Shown here: in pieces, positions 970 through 63,565 of the stretch
Layout of the letters: each line of letters begins with the position of its first letter
How positions within the stretch are numbered: position 1 is the first letter of the stretch
Source of the DNA: a virus
Lineage: Duplodnaviria; Caudoviricetes
Strand: one strand, 5' to 3'
DNA: 64,000 bases
IMG/VR virus record: IMGVR_UViG_3300020112_000486
Span: 6,651-70,650 of that record
Translations under genes and position numbers: made by a program
Notes under the pieces: generated by a model
The model's database searches: none
Told to the model about the DNA's origin: nothing
The model's input: only the letters and a program-made list of their open reading frames with translations

Positions 970-1188
970 ATGATTATTCCACCATATAAGCCGGATCATG
1001 AGTATTCCTATTGGGAGTTAGCAAACAAGCACCCTGAGTATGCGCAAATGCTCGGTAATGCTTGGGCTCCATACGAGGCAAAACCTGACCTCGCAGGTTT
1101 ACCCCCGGAAGTGGTGAAAATGATACCTCAGGAATGCCGCGAAGGCAAACCGAATGACCGTATAGATGCATGGATCTTAACCAAATAA
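970..1188 (+). CDS. Hypothetical protein
   Basis: 72-aa ORF packed between neighbours on the coding strand. Confidence 0.5.
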   Translation: MIIPPYKPDHEYSYWELANKHPEYAQMLGNAWAPYEAKPDLAGLPPEVVKMIPQECREGKPNDRIDAWILTK

Positions 1189-1195
1189 ATACTAT

Positions 1196-1753
1196 ATGGA
1201 AGAAGTGGAAGTAGCTTTAGACTTTTGGAATAAATTGAGCGAAGCGCTTGAAGACGAAAACGGCCTTAGCTGTTTACGCCGCGTGGTAAATAATGCACGT
1301 GTACTGAGCTCAATGATGGAAGCCAATGGCATGCTTACCGAAGCAAATAATCTTGTCAGCACAATGCAGACAATGAATAAGAAGTTGACGATGGCAACGC
1401 ATAATCGTTCGGTTGATAATGTGTTGGTATTCGTATTCCTTAAATCATTGCTTACTTTGCCAACAAGAACTAAAGCATTCCGACTTGGCCTAATTGATAA
1501 AGACGGTCGCCTTATTAAGCAGCCTAAAACAAAGGAAGAACATGACTGCATCTCAAATCTTGACTTGCTTATGTTCAAAATTCGTAAGTGGCTTGCTCCA
1601 AAAATGCAATTCTTAACCACCGTTTCTTGGCTAAAGAGTGCAGGAAACGATGCTCGTGTACAGAACTATTTCTCAAACACAGAAACTGTTTCAAGAACTT
1701 ATATGGTTAATCGCGTAAACAAAGATCTTGAACGAATTTTAGATAAGGGTTAA
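1196..1753 (+). CDS. Conserved T4-like phage protein of unknown function
   Basis: TLPTRTKAFRLGLIDKDGRLIKQPKT...LDLLMFKIRKWL resembles a recurrent T4-like phage family (A-x-x-LG-I/L-ID-x-x-G). Confidence 0.5.
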   Translation: MEEVEVALDFWNKLSEALEDENGLSCLRRVVNNARVLSSMMEANGMLTEANNLVSTMQTMNKKLTMATHNRSVDNVLVFVFLKSLLTLPTRTKAFRLGLIDKDGRLIKQPKTKEEHDCISNLDLLMFKIRKWLAPKMQFLTTVSWLKSAGNDARVQNYFSNTETVSRTYMVNRVNKDLERILDKG

Positions 1754-1755
1754 TT

Positions 1756-1983
1756 ATGGCTTGTCCTGAATGCGAAGCACAGCGTGCCGTTTACGGTTTT
1801 GTGTTAGAAGTTGGCGGAACATACATGACCAAGGTTGAAGAAATCAAGGCATGTTGCCCAGTTGAAGTTGAGGTAACTGAAATTACCACACTGGACGTCA
1901 AATTCACACACAAGGGTAAAACCTATAAAATGAACAAAAAGAAATTTCTTAGCTCAAGCTGGAGAAAATATGAGTCATATTAA
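1756..1983 (+). CDS. Hypothetical protein
   Basis: 75-aa ORF overlapping the next gene. Confidence 0.45.
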   Translation: MACPECEAQRAVYGFVLEVGGTYMTKVEEIKACCPVEVEVTEITTLDVKFTHKGKTYKMNKKKFLSSSWRKYESY

Positions 1984-2458
1984 AATGCAATTAAATGAGG
2001 CAATACAGATTCTTGAGGCTAATGGATTTGGCGCTGAAATTTCAAATAAGCGTTTGAGAAAAATGCTTAATGATGCCGGCTATTCCGATGTGCATCTTAT
2101 CAAAGGCGATGGTTATCTTTATGTAGACGCTGATGATGCACAACATCAGGACTGGTTGAACGCTTTGGACAGCACATCAATTTATCTCAATTCATTTAAT
2201 CAGCAGTCACCTGAAGAATGGTTCCAGGACATTATCATGATGCTTCGTAAAGGCCGTAATGCTTACATTGAAAAGCACCCTGACGGACCTGAAGATGTAA
2301 ATGAAGATTTTGGTATTGGCGTAGGCGGTATGACTGGCGCTGACCAAGGTATTCCAATGGGTGGTGACTGCAAAGCCGTTGTAGCAAAAAGAATGGACGG
2401 TGGAACACCTGCTTGCCGTTTTCGCAGAAGAATCAAGAAAAGAAGAAAAGCTAAGTAA
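1970..2458 (+). CDS. Putative internal head protein: leader tag + copy of the MCP N-arm + basic tail
   Basis: N-terminal LNEAIQILEANGF leader; NEDFGIGVGGMTGADQGIPMGGDCKAV matches the MCP at 62432-62512; ends RFRRRIKKRRKAK. Confidence 0.65.
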   Translation: MSHIKMQLNEAIQILEANGFGAEISNKRLRKMLNDAGYSDVHLIKGDGYLYVDADDAQHQDWLNALDSTSIYLNSFNQQSPEEWFQDIIMMLRKGRNAYIEKHPDGPEDVNEDFGIGVGGMTGADQGIPMGGDCKAVVAKRMDGGTPACRFRRRIKKRRKAK

Positions 2459-2943
2459 TGAACGAAGATTTTGAAAGAACAAGCGAAGTTGTAAACGGCT
2501 ATTTTTATACATACGCTTATAAAGCAACAAGCGCAGATCCAGCATACGATAGACTGCCGTTTATTTACTGCTTAGCCCCACATCCTAAAAGTCAGAATTG
2601 TTTCATTGGCATAAATCTTCACCATTTACCAACCAGTGAACGAATAGATTTTCTTGTTGAACTTGAAAGGCTATATCACATATTGGATAATGAAGAACGA
2701 GCCATTGTAGATATTGATGTTATTAGACGAACGATGCCTTCAGCCAAGCTTGCCTTGCGTGTTTATAACAGAAAAAATGTTAGCCGTTGCTATCGTGTTT
2801 TAAATAAAGCGGTTGGCAGATACATAGACAATGATGGCGATATTTACTTGGCTGAACCATCAACTATTATGAACAAGTATTGGACAAACTATGCTGGCGC
2901 TAAATCCGCCAAATCTCAGGAGCCTGAACAAAAGGAAGAGTAA
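2458..2943 (+). CDS. gp2: DNA end protector protein (T4 gp2-like)
   Basis: GYFYTYAY...YDRLPFIYCL...FIGINLHHLP matches the gp2 pattern (YD.FPL...GLNLHYLP). Confidence 0.75.
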   Translation: MNEDFERTSEVVNGYFYTYAYKATSADPAYDRLPFIYCLAPHPKSQNCFIGINLHHLPTSERIDFLVELERLYHILDNEERAIVDIDVIRRTMPSAKLALRVYNRKNVSRCYRVLNKAVGRYIDNDGDIYLAEPSTIMNKYWTNYAGAKSAKSQEPEQKEE

Positions 2944-2947
2944 TCGT

Positions 2948-3223
2948 TTGAATTACGGCTTAATTTATCATACACTGATTAGCCGCGCACAAACTCGAGA
3001 CGAATACATACCATATACCGAGCAGCATCACATACTGCCTCGGTCAGAAGGTGGATCTAATAAAAAATCAAATAAGGTGGAGCTTACGCCCAAAGAGCAT
3101 CACCTATGCCATTTGTGCTTAATAAGAATGGGCATGTGCTTAAAGTATTGTTTTAGACATTTGAATATCCGCGAGTATTGCGAAATGAAATACCAAGAAA
3201 AGAAAAAGAAGCATCTCATCTGA
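2948..3223 (+). CDS. Short free-standing HNH endonuclease (possibly a truncated remnant)
   Basis: (M)NYGLIYHTLISRA...EQHHILPRSEGGSNKKSNKVELTPKEHHLCH is the HNH homing endonuclease motif; probable TTG start at 2948; no C-terminal DNA-binding domain. Confidence 0.8.
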   Translation: MNYGLIYHTLISRAQTRDEYIPYTEQHHILPRSEGGSNKKSNKVELTPKEHHLCHLCLIRMGMCLKYCFRHLNIREYCEMKYQEKKKKHLI

Positions 3224-3344: not shown

Positions 3345-4229
3345 ATGACATACAACATCTATAAATGTATTGTATGTGGCAAAGATTGTCACAACATTGG
3401 CAAACATATAGCCAAGCATGGTTTAACACCACAAGAGTATTATGATAAATTTTTAAAAACGGGCAATGAAGGAATCTGTCCCGTTTGTGGTGCGGAAACC
3501 AAATTTAAGAAAATTACACAAGGATATGCAGCATATTGCTGTTTTGAACATTTCCGTATTTCAGATTTAGTTAAAGAACACCGTAAAAACACAAATTTGG
3601 AAAAATTTGGTGTTGAAAATTGTTTTCAGTCGCATGAATGCATGCAAAAGGCTGATGAAACGAAACTGTTAAAATATGGTGATGCAAAATTTAGAAACGA
3701 AGTGAAAATACGAGAAACCTGTTTAACAAAGTATGGTTTTGAAAATCCTGCACAATCTGAAATGGTGAAACAGAAAATAAATGATAGCATGATAAAACAT
3801 TTTGGCTGTCATAACTCGCAGGATCCTGAATGTCGTAAACGCATGCGTACCAGATATACATATGAAAACATAAAATTTGATAGTTCATATGAAATAGCAT
3901 TTTATATCTGGAATAAAGATCATGGCATAAATGTTGAAAGATGCTATGATTCGTTTGAATACGAAGTAAACAGAAAAATACACAAATACTTTCCTGATTT
4001 TAAAATCAATGATTCATATTATGAAATAAAAGGAGAACATTTAATTACACAAGATAGGCAACATTTAATAGATCCACATAAACATAGCATAACTGATGAA
4101 ACAGAAGCCAAAATGCAATGCATTAGAAAAAATAACATTGAAATAGTTGATAAAGACAAAATAATTTTTTATATTAAATATGTTAAGCAAAAATATGGGC
4201 AAAACTATATAAAGCAATTTAAAAAATAA
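3345..4229 (+). CDS. Free-standing homing-endonuclease-like protein (Zn-ribbon, TxLxKYG repeats, PD-(D/E)xK nuclease)
   Basis: CxxC..H..H/CxxCG N-terminus, repeated T.L.K[FY]G, C-terminal FDSSYE...YFPDFKINDSYYEIKG. Confidence 0.75.
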   Translation: MTYNIYKCIVCGKDCHNIGKHIAKHGLTPQEYYDKFLKTGNEGICPVCGAETKFKKITQGYAAYCCFEHFRISDLVKEHRKNTNLEKFGVENCFQSHECMQKADETKLLKYGDAKFRNEVKIRETCLTKYGFENPAQSEMVKQKINDSMIKHFGCHNSQDPECRKRMRTRYTYENIKFDSSYEIAFYIWNKDHGINVERCYDSFEYEVNRKIHKYFPDFKINDSYYEIKGEHLITQDRQHLIDPHKHSITDETEAKMQCIRKNNIEIVDKDKIIFYIKYVKQKYGQNYIKQFKK

Positions 4230-26158: not shown

Positions 26159-26824
26159 ATGGATGGTAAAATGCTATTATCTGAAGCAAATCAAATACTT
26201 AATTCGGCTGGGTATAGCCTTATCTGTGAGGAGTTTGAAAAGGTAACTCCTGAAATCCTAGATAAGGTTACTCAGCGTGTTTCTGACCATATTACTCGTG
26301 TTAAGCATTTCTATAATGTGTTGCTTAATAGTAATATGATTCCTGCTGAATACAAAAATACAGCAAGCGTAATGAAACATGACCGAGACAAGCTAGATCC
26401 GCGTAATCTTAAAAGACAAGCATTGCGTTACTGCTATACTGAAGAAGAAATGACACCTGAAATTAAGCATGAAATTAACGCAGTGGTTCATGAACACGTA
26501 ACTGCTAATAAGCATCACGCTGAATACTGGTGGTCAGGTGACTGGAAAGACAGGAATCAAGACTGTACATCAATGCCGCTTGAATACATTTATGAAATGA
26601 TGGCTGATTGGGCTGCTACTGCGGAAGAGCGTGGAACCTCGTTAGTCAAATGGTATAAAGACGGCGTAGTTAATGTTGGCGGTGTTCATTGGAAATTTAC
26701 TGATGAGGCTGCTGCTGAAATTGCTAAATGCGTCAATTTCCTTAAAGACAAAATTGACCCATCAATGAAAAGAAACTATGGGCTAACACAAATCGCATCA
26801 TTGACGGCGATGTTAGCTAAATAA
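26159..26824 (+). CDS. HD-like (DUF5662-type) protein with leader tag
   Basis: LLSEANQILNSAGY leader; H..RV, KHDRDK, HEH...KHHAEYW, MPLEYIYEMMADW. Confidence 0.6.
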   Translation: MDGKMLLSEANQILNSAGYSLICEEFEKVTPEILDKVTQRVSDHITRVKHFYNVLLNSNMIPAEYKNTASVMKHDRDKLDPRNLKRQALRYCYTEEEMTPEIKHEINAVVHEHVTANKHHAEYWWSGDWKDRNQDCTSMPLEYIYEMMADWAATAEERGTSLVKWYKDGVVNVGGVHWKFTDEAAAEIAKCVNFLKDKIDPSMKRNYGLTQIASLTAMLAK

Positions 26825-26945: not shown

Positions 26946-27731
26946 ATGGTAGACGCTAAATATCTTTTGCAGGAAGCCAACCTAGGCGACCAGCGCTCAA
27001 TCTGCGAAGACTATAACGGCGAAAAATTCATGTACTTGGAAGGTCCGTTCCTTGGTGCTGAAAAACGTAACCGTAATGGTCGCATTTATAAGCGTTCTCT
27101 TATTGAACGCGAAGTTAACAAGTTCCAGGGTATGATTAAGAATTGTGAAGCTTTTGGTGAATTGAACCACCCAGATTCAGCAGTTCCTAATCCTGACCGT
27201 TTTGGTGTTTTGATTACCAAGCTTGAAATGGATGGTGACCTTGCTATTGGTAAGGCTCGTGTTTTGGAAGAAACACCTTGTGGTCACACAATTCGTGGCA
27301 TTATCCGTGGCGGTGGCCGTTTGGGTATGAGTTCTCGTGGTACAGGTTCTCTAGGCGCAGACAACGTTGTTTGTGAAGACTATAACCTTATCACCATTGA
27401 CTGCGTATTCATGCCTTCTTGCCCAGATGCTTATGTTAACGCTGTTAATGAAAATACCAAGTGGGTTCTTGACGAATCTACTAACCTTTATGTTGATGCA
27501 CAGGTTATTGCTGAAAACAATGCTCGCCGTGCTCAGTCTGGTGGTATCATCAAGCCTATTTCTTCTAATGGTAATGAAGTAATCTACGATGCTGGTAAAG
27601 AATTCAATGCAGCTATCGCAAAGAACGCTTCAAGCGAAAGCATTAAGAAGGCTATGGTTGAATACATCAATACCATCGCTAAGGTAAAGAAAAAGACCTT
27701 CGAAGACAATTTCAGAGATTTCCGTGTATAA
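26946..27731 (+). CDS. gp21: Prohead core protease
   Basis: LEGPFLGAEKRNRNGRIY, GELNHP, GKARVL, GMSSRGTGSL, DCVFMPSCPDAYV. Confidence 0.93.
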   Translation: MVDAKYLLQEANLGDQRSICEDYNGEKFMYLEGPFLGAEKRNRNGRIYKRSLIEREVNKFQGMIKNCEAFGELNHPDSAVPNPDRFGVLITKLEMDGDLAIGKARVLEETPCGHTIRGIIRGGGRLGMSSRGTGSLGADNVVCEDYNLITIDCVFMPSCPDAYVNAVNENTKWVLDESTNLYVDAQVIAENNARRAQSGGIIKPISSNGNEVIYDAGKEFNAAIAKNASSESIKKAMVEYINTIAKVKKKTFEDNFRDFRV

Positions 27732-33964: not shown

Positions 33965-34510
33965 ATGAATCTCAATGAAGCATTGAACATTCTTGAAAAG
34001 CACGGATTTATTGCTGAGGCTGAAGAACCTGGCTATATGCACGGTGATATTTCAGCCTGGGACCGTGAAAAGATTAAAAAAGGCCAAACACCAAGATGGG
34101 CTAAGAAGGTAACTGAAATTGGTCCTCGTAAGAAAGAACTTCGCCAGTCAAGCTCTTATTCTGAAATTGCTATGAGAAGCGTGAATGCTCCTGATGGCAA
34201 AGCAAAGAAGCCTTATACCGAATCTGATTGGCGCCGTGATAAGGAAAATGCAACAGCAATGAATCAGCGTATTGCTGATGCGGTAGCAGACTTGCTTTCA
34301 AAATTTGAACCGTTTGACCATACTGACGCAAACCAAGAATATGCATCTATTTATGTTAAAGCTGAAGACGGCCAGTTAGATGAATATCGCATATACGGCC
34401 GTATGCGTGGTTATATGGTAAAGTTCATCGGACATGAATCTGTATTCAGCCGCAAATCGGAAGCAGTTGAAAATATCAATGCGGTAGCAATTTACATTAG
34501 AAACGGATGA
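33965..34510 (+). CDS. Putative internal head protein with leader tag
   Basis: MNLNEALNILEKHGFIAE; late promoter and AAGGAG SD. Confidence 0.6.
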   Translation: MNLNEALNILEKHGFIAEAEEPGYMHGDISAWDREKIKKGQTPRWAKKVTEIGPRKKELRQSSSYSEIAMRSVNAPDGKAKKPYTESDWRRDKENATAMNQRIADAVADLLSKFEPFDHTDANQEYASIYVKAEDGQLDEYRIYGRMRGYMVKFIGHESVFSRKSEAVENINAVAIYIRNG

Positions 34511-35139
34511 GAAATCTAATGCTATTATCTGAAGCAAAAACCATTCTTAAGAATAATGGTTACATTGTAGAAAGCAATGTAAAAGGCGATTTTGTTAAAG
34601 GCGAGCGTGGTGGCGAAAAATTCAAAACCCTTTCAAACGATTATACATACGATGATGCAAGACGCTATTTTGCTTCAGCTATCATTGGTGAAGAAAAAGC
34701 CAATGATGAAACTTATTTGAACAACTGGTGGGACGGCATCATGCGTAAGAGCCGTAAGAATCAATTTGAAAAGACTTACGCTGCCTTTGAAAAAATTAAA
34801 GCCGCGGGTAAAGCAAAACTATACCGCGGTGTTATCGTAAATAAAGGCGAAGAAATTGATACTGAACATGCCGGTGTTTGTTGGTCATTCAGTGCCAGCA
34901 TGCCTCGCCGTTGGGTTGAAGACATTTGGGATAAAATGGTCTATAACCATGTTATAAATAATTCAGAGCTTGAAGACTGTGTAAAGGTTATTTTCTCAGC
35001 AACTACTTCTGTTGATAATATGTTACTTCCATATTCGTTCTGGCTTGCCGGACGATTTGAAAGACCTGAATGGGAAATCAGACTAAAAGATGAAAACGCA
35101 GTAGGAAACATTACACAAAGAAATCTTGATGAGGAGTAA
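34507..35139 (+). CDS. Leader-tagged protein, possible ADP-ribosyltransferase fold
   Basis: LLSEAKTILKNNGY; LYRG...GVCWSFS...EWEIRL fits the R-S-E arrangement. Confidence 0.5.
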   Translation: MRNLMLLSEAKTILKNNGYIVESNVKGDFVKGERGGEKFKTLSNDYTYDDARRYFASAIIGEEKANDETYLNNWWDGIMRKSRKNQFEKTYAAFEKIKAAGKAKLYRGVIVNKGEEIDTEHAGVCWSFSASMPRRWVEDIWDKMVYNHVINNSELEDCVKVIFSATTSVDNMLLPYSFWLAGRFERPEWEIRLKDENAVGNITQRNLDEE

Positions 35140-35731
35140 TATGCTATTAAAAGAAGCTAAAGAAATTCTGAAAAAGAATGGTTATCGTCTCGTTGAAGAT
35201 ACTGAAGATTCGGAAGATCTTGAAATTGAAAAAGACGAATTTGCTCGTCGTGTAAAGAGACGCAAGGCTACAATGAAGGGCCAGTTTGATATTTACGATC
35301 ATGAAGATAAAGAATCGCTTCGTCACCCAGATCTTACTGATAAAATTGCTGCTGCTAAGAACTTCAATGGCGGCATTACGGCTAGCGGCGATGTAAAGAA
35401 TGATTTCGTCGTTGAAATTGAGGATCTTGGATGGGAAGTCGCTGGTCAAGATACCTATGGTGACGACGCTCATTTGAGTACTTTGCATGACGCATGGTGC
35501 AAGAAAATCGGCAAGCAACATGTATTCATTTACGTTCATTTCTACAAAGATGGTACTAAGGCACACTATGAAATTGATGCATCTACTAGAACAAAGAGCA
35601 CTAGACATCAGAAGACTGTTGACATTGACGATGGCGTCCAGTTTGCTGATATGCTAGATAATTTGGCAACAACAATGGCGGAGGGTTAATATGCTATTAA
35701 AAGAAGCTAAAGAAATTCTGAAAAAGAATGG
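35137..35731 (+). repeat. 45-nt perfect direct repeat encoding the leader tag (35137-35181 and 35687-35731)
   Basis: TAATATGCTATTAAAAGAAGCTAAAGAAATTCTGAAAAAGAATGG occurs twice. Confidence 0.9.
35141..35689 (+). CDS. Putative internal head protein with leader tag
   Basis: MLLKEAKEILKKNGYRLVED; GAGGAG SD. Confidence 0.6.
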   Translation: MLLKEAKEILKKNGYRLVEDTEDSEDLEIEKDEFARRVKRRKATMKGQFDIYDHEDKESLRHPDLTDKIAAAKNFNGGITASGDVKNDFVVEIEDLGWEVAGQDTYGDDAHLSTLHDAWCKKIGKQHVFIYVHFYKDGTKAHYEIDASTRTKSTRHQKTVDIDDGVQFADMLDNLATTMAEG

Positions 35732-36140
35732 CTACATTCTAGAGTCAGAAGAAATTAGCATTGGTGATCTTGTTGCTTTTGCTAAACTTAATTGTTCAAA
35801 AGCAATGGGTGCTGCTGTATCAGTTAAAGACCGATGCGAATGGCCACTTGTAGAAATTGACATCACAGGTGATGCTGTGTTTAAGAAATACAATGGCACT
35901 TGTATTACTGGTTACTTTAAAGAAAGAACTGGAGCTGGTGCTCGTCGCGGTGCTTCAAAGTATTTTTCAATTTTTCCGGAAGAAGGCAAACTTGTTGTAG
36001 GTCCTGGCACAAGCGAAAGAGTAAATGGAAAACTTTGTCGTTTAATTACCAATGAATATACATACAATTCATGGGACGACTTAATTAAGTTCTTCAATCG
36101 TAATAATTTTAACACAACAAAATTGCCAAAAAACATTTAG
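35691..36140 (+). CDS. Putative internal head protein with leader tag
   Basis: MLLKEAKEILKKNGYILESEE. Confidence 0.6.
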   Translation: MLLKEAKEILKKNGYILESEEISIGDLVAFAKLNCSKAMGAAVSVKDRCEWPLVEIDITGDAVFKKYNGTCITGYFKERTGAGARRGASKYFSIFPEEGKLVVGPGTSERVNGKLCRLITNEYTYNSWDDLIKFFNRNNFNTTKLPKNI

Positions 36141-36453
36141 CGAAGCTAAAGAAATCTTGGAAAAGAATGGGTACCTGTTGGAAAATGATTTTTCATCTGA
36201 CCTTGCATTAAAGAAACTTGATGTTAAAGATGGTGATTTGTATGCAACATTTGACATTGTAGAAACTGAATACTCCGAAGCACTCATCAAATACTATAAC
36301 ATTTTTCCAGGTGACGAATTTACTTCTAAGGTAAGATTCAGCGACAAAGGTGAACCTTACGTAACCGGCTTAAACCACGCGAATTATAGATGGTACTTTA
36401 ATCCGGAAGATTCTCAGAAAATCAGAACTGCTGCTCGTAGCTTGCGTCGTTAA
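36130..36453 (+). CDS. Leader-tagged ORF lacking an ATG before its tag
   Basis: Frame reads KTFSEAKEILEKNGYLLEND; first canonical start is TTG 36157, inside the tag. Confidence 0.5.
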   Translation, partial: KTFSEAKEILEKNGYLLENDFSSDLALKKLDVKDGDLYATFDIVETEYSEALIKYYNIFPGDEFTSKVRFSDKGEPYVTGLNHANYRWYFNPEDSQKIRTAARSLRR

Positions 36454-36462
36454 AGGTGCATT

Positions 36463-37131
36463 ATGAATCTGATTATTAAGTCATCAACAATCAATACATC
36501 TTCAAAGAAAAACCGTGAAATTAAGTTCATCGTAATTCATTATACCGCTGGCGTTACATCAGCAGGTAAAAGTGATGAAAACACAGCAGCTTGGTTTAAA
36601 CGCCTTGAAACAAAAGCTTCATCAGATTATATTGTTGATGATGATTCAGTAACGCAGTTCAACACTGACATTAAGAACCGATATACATGGCACTGTGGCG
36701 GTTCATTATACAAGACAAAAGGCGGTTCTTATTTCAACATATGCAAGAACTCAAACTCTATTGGTGTTGAAATCTGTTCAAACAATGCAACGAAGAAAGT
36801 AACAAACGCAAATGACGCCAATTGGTATTTTACAGAAGAAACTTTGAATAACGCTGTAGAATTAGTTAGACAGTTAATGCAAGAATATAACATTCCAATT
36901 GAGAATGTTATCCGTCACTATGATGTAAACGGTAAACCTTGCCCAGGCATTGTCGGCTGGAACGCTGACACAGGTGATGAATCTAAATGGAATGCTTTCA
37001 AGGCTAGCTTAGTTGATACTCCTGCATGTAATCATGAAAACGAAATTGAGAAACTTAAAGCTGAAGTAGAACTTTGGAAGTATAAATATATTGAGCTAAA
37101 AAACAAGCTTAAATTGCTTACGGAGGAATAA
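36463..37131 (+). CDS. N-acetylmuramoyl-L-alanine amidase (Amidase_2; endolysin candidate)
   Basis: FIVIHYTAG, NSIGVEIC, VIRHYDVNGKPCPG; coiled-coil C-terminus. Confidence 0.9.
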   Translation: MNLIIKSSTINTSSKKNREIKFIVIHYTAGVTSAGKSDENTAAWFKRLETKASSDYIVDDDSVTQFNTDIKNRYTWHCGGSLYKTKGGSYFNICKNSNSIGVEICSNNATKKVTNANDANWYFTEETLNNAVELVRQLMQEYNIPIENVIRHYDVNGKPCPGIVGWNADTGDESKWNAFKASLVDTPACNHENEIEKLKAEVELWKYKYIELKNKLKLLTEE

Positions 37132-37132
37132 G

Positions 37133-37216
37133 ATGAAACACGTTGATACCGCTGACTTTGATCCTCGTAATACTCCGAGCATCATTGAATGGATTCTTGA
37201 CCACATTGAGAGGTAA
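37133..37216 (+). CDS. Small hypothetical peptide (27 aa)
   Basis: GGAGG SD, ATG 37133, fills the gap exactly between amidase and 37220. Confidence 0.4.
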   Translation: MKHVDTADFDPRNTPSIIEWILDHIER

Positions 37217-37219
37217 TAA

Positions 37220-38110
37220 ATGAAAGTAAAAGGCGATAAAGTTTACTTTGAAGCTGATGATTATAAACTAGCTAAAGAATTGCTTAATAAGCGTGTTGTA
37301 ATTCATGCTGATGGAACTGGCCCATTTGGTGAAAACGAAGGCGCTCATGTCACTGGCATGGATGTGGACTATGCTGATAACATTGAGAATTATGACAGTC
37401 TTGAAGGAAAAGGCTGGGACGATCTCGATGATGAAGAAAAAGAATGGTTTGATGGCGAAGACGACTTTGAACAGCTAAATCCATTCTGGGCAGATGGCAT
37501 TGTTTGCATTGACAAAGATCTTGGTCAGTCAGGTATTAACTGGTGTGACTGGGAAATGATTTATGCAGATCTTTGGGTTGAAAAAGAAGATTATGATAAA
37601 GTAAATAAAGTACACACCGTGCATTATGACATGGAAGTTGAAAGTACAAAGTATAGAAGTACAGGTATGTTGCTATCAGAAGCAAAAGAAATCTTGAAAA
37701 AGAATGGTTATAGACTTGTTGAAGATACTGACGATTCTGAAGGTATGTCACTTAGAGATAAAATCGCTATGGCAAAGAAGTTTAATGACGGTCCTGCGCC
37801 TGCCAATAAACCGGCATTTAAATGGACAGGCACTAGGTTCTATAATGCCATTGTTGATGCAGTGAAAGCGCGTGGCCTTAAAGCAAAACGTGACTTAAAT
37901 TGCATCATTGTACGCGGCGTTGGAGACTTTGATTTTGATGGCGGCGATGATTTGATGTATAGAGCCCCTGAAGATGTTGGAAGAATGCGTGTTTATGTTA
38001 ACGGGGATCCGCAAGAATTTGAAGTATTTAATTTTGATATGCAGGATTTGCAGTCATGCATTGATGAAATTGCGGATTTCATCTGTAACTATAAAGGCGA
38101 TGAAGACTAA
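37220..38110 (+). CDS. Two-module protein with an internal leader tag
   Basis: Acidic N-module; internal MLLSEAKEILKKNGYRLVEDTDDSE at ATG 37667, close to the 35141 protein. Confidence 0.6.
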   Translation: MKVKGDKVYFEADDYKLAKELLNKRVVIHADGTGPFGENEGAHVTGMDVDYADNIENYDSLEGKGWDDLDDEEKEWFDGEDDFEQLNPFWADGIVCIDKDLGQSGINWCDWEMIYADLWVEKEDYDKVNKVHTVHYDMEVESTKYRSTGMLLSEAKEILKKNGYRLVEDTDDSEGMSLRDKIAMAKKFNDGPAPANKPAFKWTGTRFYNAIVDAVKARGLKAKRDLNCIIVRGVGDFDFDGGDDLMYRAPEDVGRMRVYVNGDPQEFEVFNFDMQDLQSCIDEIADFICNYKGDED

Positions 38111-41103: not shown

Positions 41104-41450
41104 TGAAACTTACAGAAGCATTTCATATTCTTTCTAAGAATGGATACGAATTTACTCGCTTGAATGAAAACAATGATTTAAGTGATTATTTACTTCAGCG
41201 AGTATATCAAGTAGCCACTGAAATTTATACCAGGGAGATTGCGGATCATGCACCTAATCTTGATTCTACAAATCGTCCTGACCATGATTATCTGCAGCGA
41301 TTTGACTATCTTTCTGATAGTTTGAAAGCTGCAGTAAAACGCGCGGCAGTCGCTCTGAAAAATGACCTCGCTGCTGAAGGTTTTGATATTCACGAACGGA
41401 ATGTTGAAACCGAAATCTTTGACGCATTGAAACTTTACGCCAAGGATTAG
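41103..41450 (+). CDS. Putative internal head protein with leader tag
   Basis: MKLTEAFHILSKNGYEFTRLNE. Confidence 0.6.
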   Translation: MKLTEAFHILSKNGYEFTRLNENNDLSDYLLQRVYQVATEIYTREIADHAPNLDSTNRPDHDYLQRFDYLSDSLKAAVKRAAVALKNDLAAEGFDIHERNVETEIFDALKLYAKD

Positions 41451-61088: not shown

Positions 61089-61235
61089 GGGTTTAAAACA
61101 TACTGCCGTGGACTGAAACATGTCCACGGTTTTTCAGACTTATAAACCTAGGATATTTGGTTTGAAAACCTAATAAATAATTTAAGAGTATGGAAATAAC
61201 ACATCTCGGTGTATAAAACAAATTGGAGGATTAAC

Positions 61236-62198
61236 ATGGATAAGATTATTGAAAAACTTGCTGGTGTCCTTTCCGCAGAAGACTTGAATGAAGTCAAGGC
61301 TGCATTTGAGGCTGCTGTTACTGAACGCTTGCAAGCTAAACTCGATGAAGAAACTTCAAATCTTGCCAAGAAAGCTGAAGAATTCTGCCAGTTGAGAATC
61401 AAGGAAGCAGTTGAAAAGAAGACTGCTGAATTGGAAAACCTTGCTAATAAGTATTGTGAAGAACGCTGTGCCAAGATTACTGAAAAGGCACAGGCTCGCC
61501 TTGATGCTCAAACCAAGCAGTTGGAAGAAGCAGCTCAGCAATACATTTACATGTTCTTTGAAGAAAAGTATCAGGAACGTTGCGGCGAGGATCTCAAAGA
61601 GCTCGAAGAACGCTTGATTGGTAACCTTGACAATTATCTTGAATATACTATCTCCGAAAAGATTAGTCCTGCACTCATCAAGAAGACTGCTATCAACGAA
61701 ACATATGAACCGATCATTAAGCTCATTCAGAATGCTTTTGAAGACAAGTTTGTGCCGCTTGACACAACTGGTACTCGTAAGATTCAGGAATGCAAGGTTG
61801 AAAATGCTCAGTTGAGAAAGGATCTTGCTACACAGTGCAACGAAGTTCACCGCTTGAATGAAATGGTGGACAAGGCTAATAAGCGTGCCCTTATCGCTGA
61901 AAAGACTGCAGGCATGACACCTAACCAGGTTGCTCGTGTTAAGAACATCTTTGAAAGCAAGAGCTATGCTACTACAAAGAAGGAAATTGATTCCTATGTT
62001 GAAGTTATGAATGAACGCGCCCCTATCATGAAGAGACCGACTCAGCGCCTTCAGGAAAACACAACATTGAAAACAAAATCCTTGAATGTAGAAGATACCA
62101 CGGAAGATATCATTACTGAAAAATTCCAGCCAAAGAAGAAAATGTCACAGACGGATTCCTTCTTGCTCCAGGCTGCTCACTTTTCAAGAGAAAAATAA
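61236..62198 (+). CDS. gp22: Prohead core scaffolding protein
   Basis: Long coiled coil (FEAAVTERL, LDNYLEY), directly upstream of the MCP. Confidence 0.8.
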   Translation: MDKIIEKLAGVLSAEDLNEVKAAFEAAVTERLQAKLDEETSNLAKKAEEFCQLRIKEAVEKKTAELENLANKYCEERCAKITEKAQARLDAQTKQLEEAAQQYIYMFFEEKYQERCGEDLKELEERLIGNLDNYLEYTISEKISPALIKKTAINETYEPIIKLIQNAFEDKFVPLDTTGTRKIQECKVENAQLRKDLATQCNEVHRLNEMVDKANKRALIAEKTAGMTPNQVARVKNIFESKSYATTKKEIDSYVEVMNERAPIMKRPTQRLQENTTLKTKSLNVEDTTEDIITEKFQPKKKMSQTDSFLLQAAHFSREK

Positions 62199-62281: not shown

Positions 62282-63565
62282 ATGAGAGGAATCAGACAAG
62301 AAATCGTTGAGCGCTGGACAAAGGAAGTTCCGGAAGGAATTTCTGTTGCCGACATTCAGAATCGCTATATCCGCGAAAACGTCGCTCAGTTGATGGAAAA
62401 CCAGCAGAATGATGCAATGCATTCTACATTGAACGAAGACTTTGGTATTGGCGTGGGCGCTCCGCTCGGTGCTGACCAGGGTATCCCACACGGTGGTGAC
62501 GCTAAGGCAGTTTTTGCTCCAGTTTCACTTGCACTCGTTCGCCGTGTGTTCCCGCAGTTGTTCGCAAACGTTCTCGTTGGCGTTCAGGCAATGCAGGGTC
62601 CTGTAGGTCTTGCTTACGCTATGCGTACAGTTTATAAGGACGAACTTGACCAGGGTAAGGTTGTTGAAGCTGCATGGAAGGACGTTCCAGAATACTCTGG
62701 CTTCACAGGTTCTACTGCTAACACAAGCGGCAAGATTGACGCAGGTACTGCAGTTGAAACTCAGGCTGCTGAAGGTTGGTCTATCAATGATCATGACAAG
62801 CAGGGTAAGATCCCTGAATTGGCTATCATGTTCAGCCGTCAGGCTATCGTAGCTGGCACTCGTAAGATTGCTTCTAGCTTCAGCCTTGAATCTATTGATG
62901 ACATCAAGAAGATGCAGGGTGTTGACATGGTTAACGACATGGTTAACGTTCTTCAGTACGAATTGACTGCTGAAATTGACCGTGAAACAATCGCTCGTTG
63001 TAAGGCTCTTACCAAGCTCAAGACAATCCGTCCTGCTGCTGAAGCTGCTACTGACGGTTGGTCTGGTCGTTGGTCTCAGGAACGTTTGAGCAACATTGTT
63101 ACTCACATTATCGCTGCTTCTAACGATATTGCTATCGCAACTCGTAAGGCACCTGGTAACATTGCTGTTGTTTCTCCTGCTGTCGCAACTGCTCTTCAGT
63201 CTGCAACACAGTTCTTCAACAAGATCACACACGAAGTAACAGGTTCTACTGCAACAGTTGAAGTTGGTGCTTTGAACGGTGGTCAGATTAAGGTTTACCG
63301 CGATGCTTACGCTGTAAATAAGGGCGTTGATAACGAAGAAGTTCTCATCGCTTACAAGGGCGCATCTAACGATGACGCTGGCGTAATCTTCTGTCCGTAC
63401 GTTACTGGCGTGGTTAACCAGGCTATTGACCCGAATACATTCAGCCCTCGTATCGGTATCATGACTCGCTATGCATTCGCTAACAACATGCTCGGCGCAG
63501 ACAACTACTACCGTACATTGAAGTTCGAAGGTCTTGCTGGTAAGATTGCTGGTGATACATACTAA
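62282..63565 (+). CDS. gp23: Major capsid protein
   Basis: AQLMENQ..LNE propeptide, LVRRVFP, VGVQAMQGPVGLAYAMR, ELTAEIDRE, IFCPYV, FSPRIGIMTRYA. Confidence 0.96.
   Translation: MRGIRQEIVERWTKEVPEGISVADIQNRYIRENVAQLMENQQNDAMHSTLNEDFGIGVGAPLGADQGIPHGGDAKAVFAPVSLALVRRVFPQLFANVLVGVQAMQGPVGLAYAMRTVYKDELDQGKVVEAAWKDVPEYSGFTGSTANTSGKIDAGTAVETQAAEGWSINDHDKQGKIPELAIMFSRQAIVAGTRKIASSFSLESIDDIKKMQGVDMVNDMVNVLQYELTAEIDRETIARCKALTKLKTIRPAAEAATDGWSGRWSQERLSNIVTHIIAASNDIAIATRKAPGNIAVVSPAVATALQSATQFFNKITHEVTGSTATVEVGALNGGQIKVYRDAYAVNKGVDNEEVLIAYKGASNDDAGVIFCPYVTGVVNQAIDPNTFSPRIGIMTRYAFANNMLGADNYYRTLKFEGLAGKIAGDTY

Follow-up and report, generated by a model that had tools for sequence, protein, structure and literature searches.

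The small gene described here is a late gene of an uncultured T4-like gut phage. It lies in an operon near the start of the window, by which we mean the whole 64,000-nucleotide stretch of DNA that was analysed. The parts of the gene, its neighbours and the head genes that bear on its interpretation are as follows.

1184-1191, plus strand: late-promoter-like octamer just 5' of the operon, differing from the T4 late consensus TATAAATA at one position (weak; motif scan, by consensus match alone).
1196-1753, plus strand: ORF185, homologous to the N-terminal domain of the "long" gp61.1 of Straboviridae (phrog_2086 positions 3-78, E 2e-7).
1756-1983, plus strand: ORF75, a small Cys-containing protein kept between ORF185 and the module gene in L001, L032, L177, L078, L018 and L106.
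1970-2458, plus strand: ORF of the small protein, 162 residues; an alternative start at 1985 is the one used by relatives.
1985-2035, plus strand: N-terminal leader of the type L-x-E-A-x-x-I-L-x-x-N-G-(F/Y), a candidate capsid-targeting sequence (CTS), from a six-frame motif scan.
2036-2296, plus strand: folded acidic middle domain (AlphaFold2), variable or absent in relatives.
2297-2305, plus strand: V-N-E, a predicted prohead-protease site with the cut after E112, aligned with L-N-E of the major capsid protein (MCP).
2306-2386, plus strand: near-copy of residues 1-27 of the MCP in its predicted mature form, equivalent to the N-fist (pairwise comparison with the MCP).
2387-2455, plus strand: linker and polybasic tail, 23 residues with 12 K/R and pI 12 (composition).
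2458-2943, plus strand: gp2-like DNA end protector (phrog_429, E 2e-15; the L001 orthologue matches Pfam Phage_T4_gp2).
26946-27731, plus strand: T4 gp21-type prohead serine protease (Pfam Peptidase_S77, E 7.6e-27).
61209-62198, plus strand: gp22-type scaffolding protein (Pfam T4_CASP, E 1.5e-13), with 16 (L/I)-x-E sites.
62282-63565, plus strand: MCP, 427 residues (Pfam Gp23, E 3.3e-68), with L-N-E at 62429-62437, followed by the N-fist equivalent (62438-62518).

A GGAG sits 6 nt 5' of the ATG at 1970, the stop codon of the small ORF overlaps the ATG of the gp2-like gene (TAATG), and the gene order ORF185, ORF75, module gene, gp2 is kept in all subclades examined, one clade having another downstream gene. 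ORF75 has no family match in Pfam or PHROG. ORF185 aligns with the long gp61.1 of an Acinetobacter phage (BLASTP, E 6e-10), and together with its orthologues in L032 and L078 it matches phrog_2086 positions 3-85 with E values of 1e-10 to 6e-7. Beyond the module gene, a small HNH-like ORF (2891-3223; also L018:6566-6799 and L078:5412-5681; G-G-S-N-K-K-S-N-K-V ... H-H-x-C-H) overlaps the 3' end of gp2, a position that is kept in distant relatives. It is followed by a 294-residue zinc-ribbon/nuclease-like ORF (3345-4229) that is absent from a near-identical 266-kb relative (L137:585-2885), where a GyrB-like gene stands directly next, and which looks like a mobile insertion.

A recount of the resemblance between the small protein and the MCP gives the 22 of 27 identical residues claimed in an earlier reading of the sequence alone (the sequence-only reading), with N-E-D-F beginning at 2300 in the small ORF and at 62432 in the MCP. 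By BLASTP, 23 of 30 residues are identical (pair E 6e-12), spanning P3 to P27' of the MCP site, and these two copies are the only ones in the 70.6-kb contig that holds the window, a third having been sought there and not found. T4 gp21 cleaves gp23 after (I/L)-x-E. The L-N-E of the MCP lies at exactly the same offset from the conserved V-R-R motif as does L-T-E, the known gp21 cleavage site, in T4 gp23; therefore, the 27 shared residues are the first 27 of the predicted mature MCP. All of the 120 MCP relatives among the matches listed retain this N-terminal segment, at overall MCP identities of 54-93%. The nearest cultured MCPs are merely ~31% identical, and megablast and tblastn searches with the locus gave no match in cultured phages.

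The small protein has no match to the Gp23 Pfam family and its similarity to the MCP is confined to 30 residues, so that it lacks the HK97-fold body that would mark it as a gp24-type vertex protein or an MCP paralogue. AlphaFold2 folds residues ~20-102 into a small alpha/beta domain (pLDDT 84-91), for which Foldseek found no fold match in the PDB or the ESM Atlas, and leaves the MCP-like copy disordered (pLDDT <50). The C-terminus is polybasic as the sequence-only reading had it, the last 23 residues holding 12 K/R. The ~50-residue peptide that it envisaged, beginning with the neo-N-terminus of the MCP, corresponds to a predicted mature product of 50 residues with a pI of 10.97 (13 K/R, 4 D/E), and a T4-type protease gene is present. 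No gp24-like paralogue was found with the MCP as query in contigs of 290-410 kb, in which the matches were the MCP and the small protein alone; therefore, the vertices in this clade may be formed by the MCP itself, an arrangement reported for cyanophages.

Relatives of the small protein are numerous. A word-indexed search returned 32, and a profile search of 1.8 billion cluster representatives returned 90 clusters, ~75-80 of which are non-MCP proteins of 52-602 residues; the segment is thus conserved in relatives. What is conserved is the C-terminal module, the N-terminal regions being unrelated or shuffled even in close relatives. The x-N-E site that the sequence-only reading saw in the single pair has a counterpart in nearly all relatives, where an (L/V/I)-x-E site precedes the segment: P1 is Glu in 78 of 80 cluster representatives and P3 is L, V, I or M in 72 of 80. 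The small protein itself has Val at P3, where the T4 consensus is L or I. A basic run (at least 6 K/R within 8 residues) follows the module in 57 of the 80 representatives, and 27 of them bear a separate leader that is common to other ORFs. The module stands at the N-terminus of 31 representatives, at the C-terminus of 27 and in the middle of 22, joined to unrelated partner domains in proteins of up to 602 residues. At the other extreme, minimal forms of 52-57 residues (e.g. L078:4784-4957, 57 residues) comprise a five-residue leader ending in I-L-E, the copy and the basic run, and nothing else.

Several members of this set stand apart. In a distant subclade (P0194-P0224; L195:1311-2858) the module is N-terminal on proteins of 230-515 residues without a strong basic run, and since several different such proteins occur, the module may serve there as a leader for several cargos. 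A 578-residue ORF with an internal module (D-E-V-N-E, then D-F-S-M-G-I-G) on L145 (JBJFGR010000055.1) is the longest such context among the contigs from metagenome-assembled genomes (MAGs), and a 592-residue representative, P0172, is similar-looking. Phage contigs of the clade of 170-266 kb (L136-L143; JAFRFB010000097.1, JAZLKX010000052.1, JAFQXD010000042.1) have been placed in public MAGs that bear the names Methanobrevibacter sp. and "Bacilli bacterium"; they are probably mis-binned phage genomes, and the names say little about the host.

The sequence-only reading took differences at synonymous sites as a sign of protein-level selection. In the window, 60 of 81 nucleotides are identical over the 27 codons and the same codon is used at just 14 of the 21 conserved residues, which bears this out. 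We collected ten pairs of small protein and MCP on the same contig, from scans of IMG/VR and GTDB contigs with a degenerate DNA pattern for the Q-G-I-P motif and from whole-record searches. In all ten, 20-21 of 27 residues are identical; the same codon is used at 6-14 of ~20 conserved residues, and the nucleotides are 64-74% identical. Because amino acid identity is kept while codons diverge, it is selection on the protein, rather than recent gene conversion, that maintains the resemblance. Together, these comparisons support the view that the small gene is real and that its segment is conserved under protein-level selection.

Co-variation of the copy with the MCP, which the sequence-only reading had suggested as a check, turned out to be only partly present: it is seen between deep lineages but not between close relatives, where cognate and non-cognate pairs score alike. 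Among the same-contig pairs the cognate mean is 17.9/27 and the non-cognate mean 17.3/27 (one pair being misaligned), and a further matrix of copies against MCPs agreed. In a clade whose MCP has T-Q at positions 4-5, for example, the small proteins retain G-I or S-M. At the larger scale, identity of copy to MCP is 12-15/32 within Straboviridae proper, 19-23/32 within this clade and 2-6/32 across both. Within the clade the copies are nearer to the MCPs (19-23/32) than to each other (17-18/32), a pattern to be expected if the MCP segment evolves slowly and the copies drift away from it independently and faster. Derived states common to unpaired small proteins and MCP subclades (G-L-N-Q with N-G-G-D; G-G-P-G-K-G-V-L-P; E-T-F) hint at a finer tracking of the MCP by the copies. 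The second of these states is that of the distant subclade mentioned above (P0194-P0224; L195:1311-2858), which shares it with one MCP subclade (P0150-P0152), the two being unpaired by contig.

The type of leader found on the small protein also stands at the N-terminus of at least eight other ORFs of the window, most of which then show (I/L)-x-E, and by analogy with T4, where gp61.1 bears the CTS of the internal proteins, we infer that it acts as a CTS. ORFs with this leader (M-x-L-x-E-A-x-x-I-L-x-x-N-G-Y) lie at ~26171-26824, 33971-38110 and 41109-41450, with unrelated sequence past (I/L)-x-E. Five of them form a tandem array (33971-38110) that resembles the internal-protein locus of T4, and the one at 26171-26824, which carries DUF5662, is just upstream of the prohead protease.

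A search of the T4 genome with gp23 residues 55-100 identified, besides gene 23, a 54-codon ORF with E 4.7e-6, which is gene 61.1. Residues 2-38 of gp61.1 align with residues 57-93 of gp23 (17/37 identical, pairwise E 6e-9), and its first ten residues are 7/10 identical to the published CTS of the internal proteins (IPs), including positions 4 and 7, reported as important for targeting, and positions 8 and 10, reported as important for processing. In T4 gp61.1 an IP-type CTS and an I-K-E site precede the gp23 N-fist copy, and K-K-K-K follows it. The gene occurs in 1389 phage records. The T4 protein has 54 residues (NP_049649.1, phrog_1823) and the long forms of other Straboviridae ~160-190 (phrog_2086), and all are annotated as hypothetical. 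No PDB entry models gp61.1, and our literature search found it in gene tables only, with no paper describing it. The view that the design has no described equivalent thus needs qualifying, given that T4 gene 61.1 and its many orthologues share it; it holds to the extent that these are annotated as hypothetical and that no paper on them was found. In some GenBank phage records (H59, H66, H67, H78; L201:2474-2953) gp61.1 homologues are labelled "major capsid protein" or "putative capsid component". On proteins of ~55-160 residues these labels are mis-annotations, presumably from pipelines that picked up the N-fist similarity.

The long forms tie the T4 gene to the operon of the window. T4 gp61.1 matches the last third of phrog_2086, and the first half of that family matches ORF185 and its orthologues. 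When translated, L201:2474-2953 (Acinetobacter phage) and L200:2501-3064 (Cronobacter phage S13) comprise a domain resembling ORF185, an (L/F)-x-E site, an N-fist copy matching their own MCP and a K-run; a K/R-rich run follows the copy in the T4, Acinetobacter and Cronobacter forms alike. Since long gp61.1 consists of an ORF185-like domain plus the module, ORF185 and the module gene correspond to its two halves. The small protein and its module have no match to the phrog_1823 or phrog_2086 HMMs, whereas T4 gp61.1 matches both, and comparisons of T4 gp61.2 with ORF185, and of the N-domain of the small protein with that of long gp61.1, revealed no relation. It is the architecture and the neighbouring ORF185 that point to a link between the small protein and gp61.1.

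The reading that we favour, with a probability of roughly 0.5, is that the gene is this clade's counterpart of T4 61.1 and encodes a prohead-targeted, protease-trimmed minor head pre-protein that gives rise to a basic internal peptide mimicking the MCP N-terminus. Packaging, cleavage, retention and docking would be its steps. The leader, and perhaps the MCP-like segment too, would take the pre-protein into the assembling prohead core. The gp21-type protease would cut it after V-N-E112, as it would the MCP after L-N-E, and so free a 50-residue peptide of pI ~11 whose first 27 residues are those of the mature MCP N-terminus and whose last 23 are the polybasic tail. This peptide would remain in the head; its MCP-like end could fill the sites of the MCP N-terminus, either before expansion, on the scaffold core, or in the shell at places that lack an MCP N-terminus, and its tail would bind DNA. 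In favour of this reading are the design of the sequence and its conservation, the near-invariant site with the basic run behind the copy, the protease and scaffold genes, the occurrence of the leader on at least eight other ORFs, and the parallel with T4 gp61.1. Val at P3, the failure of the small protein to match the gp61.1 HMMs and the lack of fine-scale co-variation with the MCP count against it. The disorder of the copy in the AlphaFold2 model is as expected for a segment that becomes ordered on binding only. In the T4 prohead, the N-terminus of gp23* is disordered and internal and is thought to contact the scaffold core, and after expansion its 25-residue N-fist is externalised and contacts four subunits (PMC9546572, PMC9958956). 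Docking in the shell meets two further objections: as the T4 N-fist ends on the outer surface, an internal peptide would need to be threaded through the shell to reach the sockets, and with an N-fist supplied by each MCP, there may be few free sockets, if any.

One alternative, unlikely in our view, is that the module acts as a protease decoy or timer. In copying the MCP junction it would serve as a competing substrate or exosite ligand that paces or localises MCP processing, the tail being merely a core anchor. In support of this, the copy covers P3-P1 as well as the P' side in full and is disordered, as a substrate would be, and T4 already has a minor head protein, inh, annotated as a protease inhibitor. 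T4-type protease sites, however, need little past (L/I)-x-E (PMC9026906), so that 27 conserved P' residues seem excessive, and a decoy would not explain why a basic run is conserved or why some relatives have large C-terminal cargos.

Similarly unlikely is the idea that the MCP-like segment is a portable tag, a capsid-incorporation signal that binds the partners of the MCP N-terminus and whose payload is whatever is attached to it, be it the acidic domain, the basic tail or, elsewhere, large domains. The varied position of the module among the representatives (N-terminal in 31, C-terminal in 27, central in 22), its unrelated partners of up to 602 residues and the shuffling of N-domains even between close relatives would all be in keeping with a tag. 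Against this, 27 of 80 members already have a separate leader common to other ORFs, a cut at the conserved site would part the N-domain from the module, and the minimal forms have no payload save the basic run.

A more ambitious proposal, which we likewise regard as unlikely, is that free copies of the MCP N-terminus complete the lattice where an N-fist is missing, at the portal and perhaps at the vertices, and that their basic tails hold DNA there. If this were true, gp61.1-type peptides would have escaped notice as a part of T4-like heads with a structural and DNA-tethering function, conserved in phages ranging from T4 to 400-kb gut phages. Lastly, although a partial MCP duplication is the simplest origin of the segment, it is hardly credible that the segment is a functionless remnant of one, or that its similarity is kept by gene conversion, given its retention in ~75-80 protein clusters across phages whose MCPs are just 54-93% identical, the scrambled synonymous sites in 10/10 pairs and the conserved synteny and operon structure.

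The design of the small protein can be read as a variation on the CTS-targeted internal head proteins, with a predicted mature end that mimics the MCP, and it seems to be undescribed in the literature that we searched. Assembly of the T4 head is among the best-studied of such pathways, yet a CTS-bearing small protein with a copy of the MCP N-terminus appears to be unstudied. The gp61.1-type design spans T4 (1389 phage records) and uncultured jumbo phages of the gut and rumen (~75-80 protein clusters). It implies that the N-terminal segment of the MCP is a binding module in its own right, and points to a missing player in core assembly, maturation timing or DNA anchoring. Because T4 has a counterpart, T4 itself offers a way to test for a role in head assembly.

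Among known systems, the N-arm or N-fist of T4 gp23* is like the segment of the small protein in its place relative to the cleavage site, in its length of 25-27 residues and in being disordered until bound; it differs in that the segment in the window stands alone, without an HK97-fold body. A view of the gp23 N-terminus as a portal-binding "N-whisker" was considered and rejected, the whisker belonging to the portal protein (PMC7136217). T4 IPI, IPII, IPIII and Alt likewise carry a short N-terminal leader found on unrelated proteins, together with an (L/I)-x-E site, and their mature part is basic; they are expected to be built into the scaffold core and to stay with the DNA (PMC9026906, PMC3012670). 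The internal proteins do not resemble the MCP, whereas the predicted product in the window is a 50-residue peptide, rather than a folded protein, whose mature N-terminus copies that of the MCP. A packaged modulator of the prohead protease may have a precedent in Inh of T4, a minor component of the head whose annotation is that of a gp21 inhibitor. We know of no mimicry of the MCP site by Inh.

The closest parallel is gp61.1, from which the window protein nonetheless departs in several respects. The module sequences of the two are unrelated (2-6/32), each resembling its own MCP, and the identity of copy to MCP is ~80% in the window phage and ~46% in T4. The window protein has a far more basic tail and an inserted folded domain of 90 residues. 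Its gene adjoins gp2 in a late structural operon, whereas gp61.1 is encoded beside the primase gene 61 in T4, Cronobacter phage S13 and the Acinetobacter phage, and the domain that the long forms fuse to the module is, as ORF185, a separate gene in the window. What they have in common is the arrangement of parts: a leader (in the window protein a candidate one) of the internal-protein type peculiar to the phage, then an (L/I/V)-x-E site within a stretch that copies the junction and first ~27 mature residues of its own MCP, and lastly a K/R run, together with the homology of the extra domain of long gp61.1 to ORF185, which lies two genes upstream of the module gene.
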